UHGV virus genome: UHGV-0310418 | Reading direction: 5' to 3' (one strand) | Source of the DNA: a virus | DNA length: 22,968 bases | Shown: positions 19,780 to 20,917 of the stretch, piece by piece | Numbering within the stretch: the first letter of the stretch is position 1 | Layout of the letters: each line of letters starts with the position of its first letter | Notes under the pieces: model-generated | What the model was told of the DNA's origin: nothing | Database searches by the model: none | The model's input: the letters and a program-made list of their open reading frames with translations, nothing else | Translations under genes and position numbers: made by a program

Positions 19780-20429
19780 GCCGCCATCTCCCTGACCAGT
19801 TTTTCCGCCTGCTGGCGAACCTGCGCCAGAAACGCCTCACCACATGCCTCAAGTTCATCGCGCCCGATGTAGCTGATTGCCGGTCCCTTCCAGGTCTTGT
19901 CGAAAACAGCAATAGCACCAGCGAAGAAAGCGCCTGTCGGCACCTGCTTCTCATCTTTCGGGATAAACCAGGCAGGCAGTTCAAAACCAATACGCCCGCG
20001 AATAAAAGCAATATGATCTGCATCTTCCGGCCACCACACTTCGCTGGTGGCAGCTTTGATCAGGAAAACATAGCGCCCGCCTTTATCACGCATGGCACTG
20101 GCATGTTTCATGATGTAACGCATGCCGGTGATGTATTGCCCCTCATGCTGACTGGCGCGGCTGTATGGGGGATTACCAAAGGCAGCACCTTTAAGCTCCG
20201 CAAGACGTTCTGACCAGTCATGCGCCAGCGCGTTGTCTTCCGCCGTGTAATACGCGGTACATTTGGCGTTATCACCGTCAGTAAACAGATCCAGGACAAA
20301 CGGGCCAAACAGGGTGTTAATTCCCCAGAAAATGTTATCCGCCGTGCGCCACTGATCGCCCACTTCCTTCAGTTCATGGGCTGGTTTGTTCCGCAGCTCC
20401 ACCAGCTCCTGGCAATATTTATTACTCAT
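19776..20429 (-). CDS. Phage N6-adenine DNA methyltransferase (Dam-like)
   Basis: AFGNPPYS is the (D/N)PPY catalytic motif of N6-adenine methyltransferases. Start placed at internal ATG (MSNKYCQELVEL) whose codon abuts the upstream stop (TAATG); track ORF 19776..20462 starts at a GTG. Confidence 0.8.
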   Translation of the reverse strand: MSNKYCQELVELRNKPAHELKEVGDQWRTADNIFWGINTLFGPFVLDLFTDGDNAKCTAYYTAEDNALAHDWSERLAELKGAAFGNPPYSRASQHEGQYITGMRYIMKHASAMRDKGGRYVFLIKAATSEVWWPEDADHIAFIRGRIGFELPAWFIPKDEKQVPTGAFFAGAIAVFDKTWKGPAISYIGRDELEACGEAFLAQVRQQAEKLVREMAA

Positions 20430-20917
20430 TAAGCCCCCACGTAATTCCCTGACAGATACCACTCATCACCCGATACAGCGCGCTTGCTGCTTTTCCGTAA
20501 GCACCGCTCACGACGTGCCAGAAAATTGTTTCGTTCTGGCTGGGAGTGGCTTTCACGGAATGCCGCCATCCACACGGTTGCAGCACGACGGTATAAGCCC
20601 CTGGACTCCAGTTCTTCAGCCTGGCGGGTCAGGCACAAAATCACCCGGGGATCGTTAGTGCCGACATAGAAATTGCGCACAGGTCTGGTTTCACGAACTG
20701 GTTGTGGTTCCGGCTCCTGCGCTCTCTCAGTCAGGCGCGGGAAATGTCTGCGTGTATCTCCTTCACAACGGTGAGCCACACGCCCACTCTGACGTAACTT
20801 GCTTGCTGACTGCAGTACGCGCTGCCGTGAGTAACCTGCAAAAGCATCCGCAATGTCTCCGGAAGTACACCCCGGATGGGCTTCAATGAATTTCTGAACG
20901 TCATTCAAAAGACTCAT
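20429..20917 (-). CDS. PerC-family transcriptional activator-like protein with N-terminal extension
   Basis: C-terminal GLYRRAATVWMAAF...ARRERCL resembles the PerC/Pch motif (GLWRRAA..W) as recalled; N-terminal roughly 90 aa are extra. ATG start with GGGGGTGAG Shine-Dalgarno. Confidence 0.45.
   Translation of the reverse strand: MSLLNDVQKFIEAHPGCTSGDIADAFAGYSRQRVLQSASKLRQSGRVAHRCEGDTRRHFPRLTERAQEPEPQPVRETRPVRNFYVGTNDPRVILCLTRQAEELESRGLYRRAATVWMAAFRESHSQPERNNFLARRERCLRKSSKRAVSGDEWYLSGNYVGA

Follow-up and report, generated by a model that had tools for sequence, protein, structure and literature searches.

Introduction

PerC of enteropathogenic Escherichia coli (EPEC) and PchA-E of enterohaemorrhagic E. 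coli (EHEC) are single-domain proteins of 89-104 amino acids (aa), encoded on horizontally acquired elements, in which a basic helical core with the motif LExxGLYRRAAxRW...R..C is joined to a conserved second half. Pch activates LEE1 of the LEE (locus of enterocyte effacement) by displacing H-NS, StpA, Hha and YdgT from DNA at the LEE1 promoter (PMC4764244). A related gene, yfdN, lies in the cryptic prophage CPS-53 of E. coli K-12 and has been called 'the K12 unique PerC homologue' (PMC5931665), and its counterpart in Shigella phage SfV is orf40. Here, we analysed a gene of this type in a 22,968-nucleotide (nt) stretch of viral DNA, UHGV virus genome UHGV-0310418, the whole of which we call the window. 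The gene belongs to the same family as CPS-53 yfdN, SfV orf40 and PHROG 1324, and shares with them the architecture of the protein and the neighbours of the gene, an O-like replication initiator gene upstream and a dam gene downstream. O proteins of the SfV/PhiR63 type differ from the window O in their N-terminal part while having the same C-terminal end, and beyond this we found nothing of substance that sets the window apart from these described cases.

A known and widespread prophage gene

The gene is yfdN, a prophage gene that is already known and annotated. A first-pass annotation of the window had presented its product as a PerC/Pch-like regulator of about 160 aa with an unusual N-terminal extension of roughly 90 aa, encoded in an early operon and possibly linking prophage induction to host gene regulation. 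The open reading frame (ORF) is present as described: it has 162 codons on the minus strand, and the motif on which the annotation relied, GLYRRAATVW...RRERCL, occupies residues 107-140, within the segment RGLYRRAATVWMAAFRESHSQPERNNFLARRERCLRKS (residues 106-143). RefSeq labels the gene 'yfdN: PerC family transcriptional regulator', and its nucleotide identity to yfdN-annotated genes is 95-99%. The RefSeq form starts at an alternative in-frame GTG (20923) and is two codons longer (164 aa); we consider the ATG at 20917 the better start, because the Shine-Dalgarno sequence lies 5 nt upstream of this ATG but abuts the GTG.

An identical protein (100%) is found in Escherichia phage PhiR63_1, and the proteins of SfV (orf40, 96.9%), SfII, SfIV, mEp460 and fifteen Stx2c-converting phages are 96-99% identical to it; the Salmonella phage ST64B protein shares 68.5% identity with the window YfdN. 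The family phrog_1324 ('transcriptional activator') matches at E 2e-78, with residues 1-161 of YfdN aligned to positions 15-166 of 172. Among 5,426 complete E. coli genomes, 2,674 carry yfdN at 95% nucleotide identity or more (2,547 of them at a coverage of at least 80%), with up to four copies per genome. An exhaustive hidden Markov model (HMM) search of 1.8 billion representative proteins returned 159 clusters at E <= 1e-3; in about 40 of these 50%-identity clusters, the proteins are 138-165 aa long, have the same two-domain layout and are 22-47% identical to the window protein. The additional N-terminal region of about 90 aa is thus real, being made up of a winged helix and a disordered linker, but the description of it as unusual was not borne out, as it is the norm of the family and part of the full-length match to PHROG 1324. 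Because this two-domain layout is standard for YfdN and roughly every second complete E. coli genome has the gene, the finding is an ordinary one.

A winged helix joined to a PerC-family core

AlphaFold2, supplied with an alignment of 46 diverse family members, returned a model with a mean predicted local distance difference test score (pLDDT) of 87.9, compared with 76.6 for a run with 10 sequences. An N-terminal winged helix and a three-helix PerC core are both predicted with high confidence, and between them runs a low-confidence linker, the length of which ranges in the family from about 0 to 30 residues; a short tail predicted to be unstructured follows the core (Table 1). Both domains are basic. 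The PerC core of the window protein carries a net charge of +8, and across the 46 members the mean net charge is +5.0 for the core and +3.4 for the third helix and wing of the winged helix. The core motif reads LExxGLxRRAAxxW....R.....R..C, and L103, R111 and A112 are invariant in all 46 sequences.

The resemblance to PerC/Pch activators seen in the first-pass annotation, for which a PerC profile search had been proposed as a check, proved significant: with Pfam PF06069, residues 98-151 reach 38.1 bits (E 1.8e-9), the gathering cut-off being 22.6. When the profile of the 46 YfdN-family members was compared with a profile of 12 short PerC-type proteins in hhalign, the two aligned with a probability of 99.3% (E 4.7e-20), and the YfdN core is 40% identical to EHEC PchE (ECs_1588, 90 aa) over 52 residues. 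As judged from these comparisons, the C-terminal region of YfdN is a true PerC-family domain with a homologous core. The match is confined to this core, covering profile positions 5-58 of the 90 in PF06069 and leaving the C-terminal half of the model uncovered. Alignment comparison likewise found in YfdN no counterpart of the half with the pattern RPPxK..F..L..A..TQ.RMGI..FR that is conserved in short PerC/Pch-type proteins; the longer YfdN instead has the N-terminal winged helix and a tail with the motif L[AS]Gx[FY]xG, which is absent from the short PerC/Pch proteins compared.

The ANR (AraC negative regulator, Aar-type) proteins are single-domain proteins of about 60-70 aa. YfdN resembles them in having a small basic helical domain, residues 96-142 aligning with positions 5-51 of the 54 in the NCBIfam model NF033650, but its score of 23.5 bits falls under the curated cut-off of 32, and YfdN has two domains. 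As for the winged helix, the Pfam MarR_2 test (PF12802/PF01047) gave 21.6 bits on residues 1-60, below the gathering cut-off of 27, and the fold matches span only the winged-helix core of about 60 residues. YfdN shows neither the gathering score nor the dimerising helices flanking the winged helix by which a MarR-type protein is recognized. Full-length YfdN, searched against the sequences of solved structures, yielded no match, even at E 10.

The YfdN-type C-terminus follows the pattern W/C-x-L-[AS]-G-x-[FY]-x-G, after which come 1-8 further residues, and the tail glycines G157 and G161 are kept in 40-42 of the 46 family members. Being both predicted to be unstructured and conserved in the family, the tail is a candidate short linear docking motif.

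The homology of the core brings up the reading implied by the first-pass annotation, according to which YfdN would be a PerC/Pch-type activator that switches on ler and the LEE, or other host virulence genes, upon prophage induction. Besides the likeness to the PchE core, it is in keeping with this reading that the early regions of EHEC prophages, Stx2c-converting ones among them, contain near-identical copies, and that yfdN was deleted from a K-12 ler-lacZ reporter strain as a possible confounder, no activity being reported (PMC5931665). However, YfdN is without the very half that the short PerC/Pch-type proteins conserve, and the genomes that carry the gene include K-12 laboratory-type strains; with a spread so wide, control of ler cannot be what maintains it. 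Furthermore, a PerC-like protein of a phage-inducible chromosomal island (PICI) represses LEE1 (PMC11773190), and an action of pchE opposite to that of pchABC has been reported (PMC7369912). In the literature mentioning yfdN, we found no published effect of YfdN on ler and no functional result for the protein: a filamentation screen matched a five-gene UTI89 fragment containing yfdN2 that was not resolved to a single gene, a glycogen-accumulation screen listed yfdN without follow-up among the ASKA clones that alter accumulation when overexpressed, and an interactome preprint placed YfdN only in a 'negative regulation of transcription' cluster. Given what the protein sequence retains and lacks, activation of ler is unlikely to be the primary role of YfdN, and we rate the wider reading, a switch of LEE or other virulence genes upon induction, as very unlikely.

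Conserved position after an O-like initiator gene

Profile searches with three sub-alignments of the 46-sequence family alignment gathered 236 YfdN-like loci from a sample of viral contigs; these form 18 clusters at 80% identity and reach down to about 24% identity with the window protein. In 230 of the 236, the same-strand gene directly upstream encodes an O-like initiator of 270-330 aa, with a median overlap of 4 nt, and yfdN is probably translationally coupled to it. In the window, the stop codon of the O-like gene (TGA, 20922-20920) stands 2 nt ahead of the yfdN ATG, while at the other end of the gene a TAATG junction gives the yfdN stop codon and the ATG of the Dam gene one base in common. 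The upstream initiators are mosaic proteins: their C-terminal bodies are of at least three unrelated kinds, and nearly all the proteins end in (DYSQ)IPxGFRG. This O tail (window positions 20923-20955; loci L002-L361) could be a motif at which a host replication factor docks.

The place of yfdN is exactly that of lambda P. A P-like gene comes after O, with an identical 4-nt overlap of stop and start codons, in lambda, phi80, Klebsiella phage 5 LV-2017 and Proteus phage Brookers, and in the window the O-like protein has a lambda-O-like C-terminal domain (38% identity over residues 183-294, tblastn). Between cII and Q, we saw no P, DnaC-like or DnaB gene in the window, and none is annotated there in the closely related prophage L001. 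YfdN could on these grounds be a replication accessory, either standing in for lambda P or a DnaC-like loader or serving as an adaptor of the O-like initiator with host DnaB/DnaC, and the resemblance of its own unstructured tail, L[AS]Gx[FY]xG, to the O tail points the same way. Apart from position, however, YfdN shares little with such loaders: it is half their size, has no ATPase domain or motifs, and is unrelated in sequence to P. The hhalign comparison of the YfdN family with lambda P gave a probability of 0.1%, that is, no similarity, and lambda P matches phrog_109 at E 2e-98 whereas YfdN has no phrog_109 match. The O proteins associated with P end in NTDW.YGV.. and not in IPxGFRG, which raised the question whether the latter tail goes with YfdN alone.

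A test independent of YfdN consisted of scanning viral contigs for the back-translated tail IPxGFRG* and analysing 118 loci, in which 106 tail matches stand at the end of an O-like ORF with a length of 150 aa or more. Of these 106, the next gene is YfdN-like in 59 and encodes a DnaC-like AAA+ loader (phrog_50) in 18, a methylase in 9, where neither YfdN nor a loader follows the O-like gene, and a Ren-like DUF977 protein in 1; the other 19 are single cases, have no clear downstream ORF or are too short to judge. That YfdN and the loader take turns after the same kind of O is compatible with a replication accessory, but since the tail precedes a loader, a methylase or a Ren-like gene as well, it is not specific to YfdN. 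Part of the conserved tail, the F-R-G codons (TTC AGG GGG), also provides the ribosome-binding site for the gene that comes next. A view of YfdN as an analogue of lambda P to which the O tail binds is weakened by this lack of specificity and by the existence of modules that contain neither YfdN nor a loader.

The modules that do have a loader are informative in another respect. In at least nine O + DnaC-like modules, the next gene encodes a DUF1627 protein, whose one or two winged helices are picked up by the YfdN family HMM (E 1e-8 to 1e-9 in a three-sequence test set, about 1e-6 in a larger ORF scan). Because a protein with a YfdN-type winged helix thus follows the loader, YfdN fits the post-loader (ren) slot better than that of the loader itself, and we regard a replication accessory role as unlikely. 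The DUF1627 proteins (PF07789, 222-270 aa; loci L276, L343 and L305), encoded some 770 nt downstream of where the O-like gene stops, have a coiled-coil C-terminus.

An occupant of the ren slot

In lambda, it is Ren that follows P, and there is a weak alignment between Ren, beginning at its first residue, and the winged helix of YfdN: the match of PHROG 142 (Ren) to YfdN has an E of 0.015 over residues 3-67, and hhalign against a Ren alignment gave E 6.4e-4 with a probability of 28%. Ren, DUF977 and DUF1627 proteins occur in the same genomic slot as YfdN and have a winged helix from residue 1, but they are without the PerC core and their C-terminal parts are unrelated to it. No homologue of any of the three was found in any of 237 YfdN loci. 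YfdN is best described as an occupant of this post-replication-gene (ren) slot that combines the winged helix typical of the slot with a PerC core. In Klebsiella phage ST405-OXA48phi1.2 (locus L240, 2917-3312), an O-like gene with an IPKGFRG tail is followed by a gene for a 131-aa protein that the YfdN HMM misses; by eye, it starts with the same winged-helix pattern, and it may be a variant occupant of the slot.

If occupancy of the slot were accompanied by a shared function, YfdN would be a Ren-like anti-exclusion factor of SfV-type phages that guards phage DNA, while it replicates, against an abortive-infection or exclusion system resident in the host. The position agrees with the order O-P-ren of lambda and O-P-'exclusion protein' of Sakai Sp8, a Ren-like DUF977 gene comes directly after an IPxGFRG-type O in locus L312, and YfdN and the Ren/DUF977/DUF1627 proteins are mutually exclusive in the sampled loci. 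Against this, the similarity that begins at Met1 is a weak one that extends no further than a generic winged helix, the proteins are unrelated in their C-terminal parts, and a search of the PADLOC library found no meaningful match of YfdN to any defence family; an anti-exclusion function therefore appears distinctly unlikely.

The methylase neighbour

The next gene downstream of yfdN encodes an N6-adenine methyltransferase in 182 of 229 loci, and three Pfam families are represented among these enzymes: phage Dam (PF05869, 148 loci), the D12 class (PF02086, 21) and MT-A70 (PF05063, 13). RusA (25 loci) and a protein consisting of a LexA DNA-binding domain (14) account for the remaining downstream genes. 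In an unbiased sample, a methylase gene lies within 3.5 kb in 28 of the 38 O-YfdN modules vs none of the 15 O-DnaC modules, and in SfV an annotated dam promoter lies inside orf40. Such figures could mean that YfdN is a partner or controller of the orphan adenine methyltransferase, acting on its expression or on its targeting to phage DNA. Yet a methylase gene directly follows an O-like gene without YfdN in 5 of the 11 'other' modules, RusA or the LexA-type protein takes its place in about 39 loci, and common ancestry within one phage lineage may be all that lies behind the association, for which reasons we hold this relationship to be highly improbable as the role of YfdN.

Short PerC-type genes in satellites

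A parallel arrangement occurs in P4-like/PICI elements, to which the short PerC-type loci that we examined (L369-L384) belong. In the EHEC Sakai element Sp7 (locus L362, 11103-12044), pchE comes directly after a primase gene, a small ORF and a gene for a protein resembling single-stranded DNA-binding protein (SSB); in Pantoea, Erwinia, Enterobacter, Kluyvera, E. albertii and E. ruysiae, short PerC-type genes lie just downstream of primase or primase-helicase and SSB-like genes. PerC-core genes thus tend to come after the replication genes of their own element. With YfdN after O and short PerC proteins after satellite primase and SSB genes, the PerC core looks like a general function of mobile elements that is co-expressed with their replication genes, and not like one specific to the LEE.

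The early operon in the window

The early genes of the window are the rightward early operon of a lambdoid prophage (Table 1). The placement of the gene in an early operon, proposed in the first-pass annotation, is confirmed: yfdN lies within minus-strand replication and nin genes whose stop and start codons overlap or abut. When the minus strand was scanned with a simple consensus, no terminator-like site turned up below 22291, and thus none among the O-like gene, yfdN and the genes downstream.

Table 1. Features of the yfdN region of the window, in the order of transcription
Feature	Coordinates	Strand	Details
cII-like CP76/YmfL	22257-22922	minus	
DUF4222	21869-22081	minus	
O-like replication initiator	20920-21912	minus	330 aa; phrog_391 E 1.3e-101; tail DYSQIPAGFRG
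ori-like repeats in the O-like gene	21414..21590		5-6 iterons of 23 nt at 23-nt spacing, core CATTTTGACCCGATG; then three tandem 12-mers
Shine-Dalgarno AGGGGG of yfdN	20923..20928	minus	inside the last codons (F-R-G) of the O-like gene; read from the sequence
yfdN-type coding sequence	20429..20917	minus	162 aa/162 codons; ATG 20917, stop TAA 20431-20429
Winged-helix domain, residues 1-62	20732..20917	minus	predicted helices H3-13, H19-25, H31-44 and hairpin E47-52/E55-60; pLDDT 95-98
Linker, residues 63-89	20651..20731	minus	low confidence, pLDDT ~62
PerC-core three-helix domain, residues 90-146	20480..20650	minus	predicted helices H90-105, H109-122, H126-144; pLDDT 97-98
C-terminal tail, residues 147-162	20432..20479	minus	W-Y-L-S-G-N-Y-V-G; predicted unstructured, pLDDT ~57-61
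Dam-type N6-adenine methyltransferase	19776-20429	minus	PF05869 E 3.3e-44
LexA-DNA-binding-domain-only protein	19453-19779	minus	108 aa; PF01726, 69 bits; without peptidase domain
RusA	19061-19456	minus	
KilA-N	18083-18910	minus	
DUF968/HNH	17086-18081	minus	
Q antiterminator	16320-17072	minus	PF03589

Several further features of the window deserve mention. The ori-like repeats fall within the portion of the initiator gene that encodes the linker, an arrangement shared with ori-lambda. Two genes downstream of yfdN, the LexA-DNA-binding-domain-only protein is conserved; it could be a competitor of host LexA or of the phage repressor. The Q antiterminator contains a segment like a DnaJ-type CXXCXGXG zinc finger (31.2 bits against a Pfam cut-off of 32.7). 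Further downstream, two full-length matches to the Rfam cspA thermoregulator (gathering score 78) are found on the minus strand, at 15106-15545 (156.7 bits) and 11860-12275 (113.7 bits), and they overlie ORFs of 71 aa at 15169-15384 and 11906-12121; these pairs are prophage-borne cold-shock protein genes with thermosensors in their 5' untranslated regions.

Discussion

The role that we consider most likely for YfdN, although only tentatively, is that of a modulator of phage nucleoprotein complexes with an anti-silencing effect. What leads us to it is the combination of a basic core homologous to that of PerC, a basic winged helix, co-expression with replication genes, and an occurrence mostly in strains without the LEE. 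YfdN is a basic two-domain protein whose gene is transcribed, along with the replication genes, as part of the rightward early operon; in this scheme, it would modulate nucleoprotein complexes on the DNA of the phage itself. The PerC core would act as it does in Pch, relieving silencing of the H-NS type, while the Ren/MarR-like winged helix would supply the contact with DNA or a partner that the short PerC/Pch proteins may make through their C-terminal half. The outcome would be to help replication, or the function of the origin, and the expression of the early and the downstream nin and late genes after induction; an effect on host genes, if there is any, would come in addition.

A broader proposal, possible but rather doubtful in our estimate, would embrace all PerC-core proteins as a general class of mobile-element proteins co-expressed with replication genes, and not in the first place as virulence regulators, YfdN being the member in the ren slot. 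By means of its tail and winged helix, YfdN might then dock on the origin complex or on a nucleoid protein, either licensing phage replication and transcription or shielding the phage from host exclusion, and the activation of the LEE by Pch would be a secondary co-option.

Since yfdN is a known, annotated and very common prophage gene and its N-terminal domain is the norm of the family, the significance of the flagged finding is in itself small. The near-identical copies in the early operons of Stx2c and other EHEC prophages nevertheless offer a possible route by which prophage induction could feed into control of the LEE. More generally, the recurrent order of O-like initiator, YfdN and adenine methylase, together with the presence of short PerC genes after satellite primases, suggests for the PerC fold a role, so far unconsidered in the virulence literature, in the housekeeping of mobile elements.

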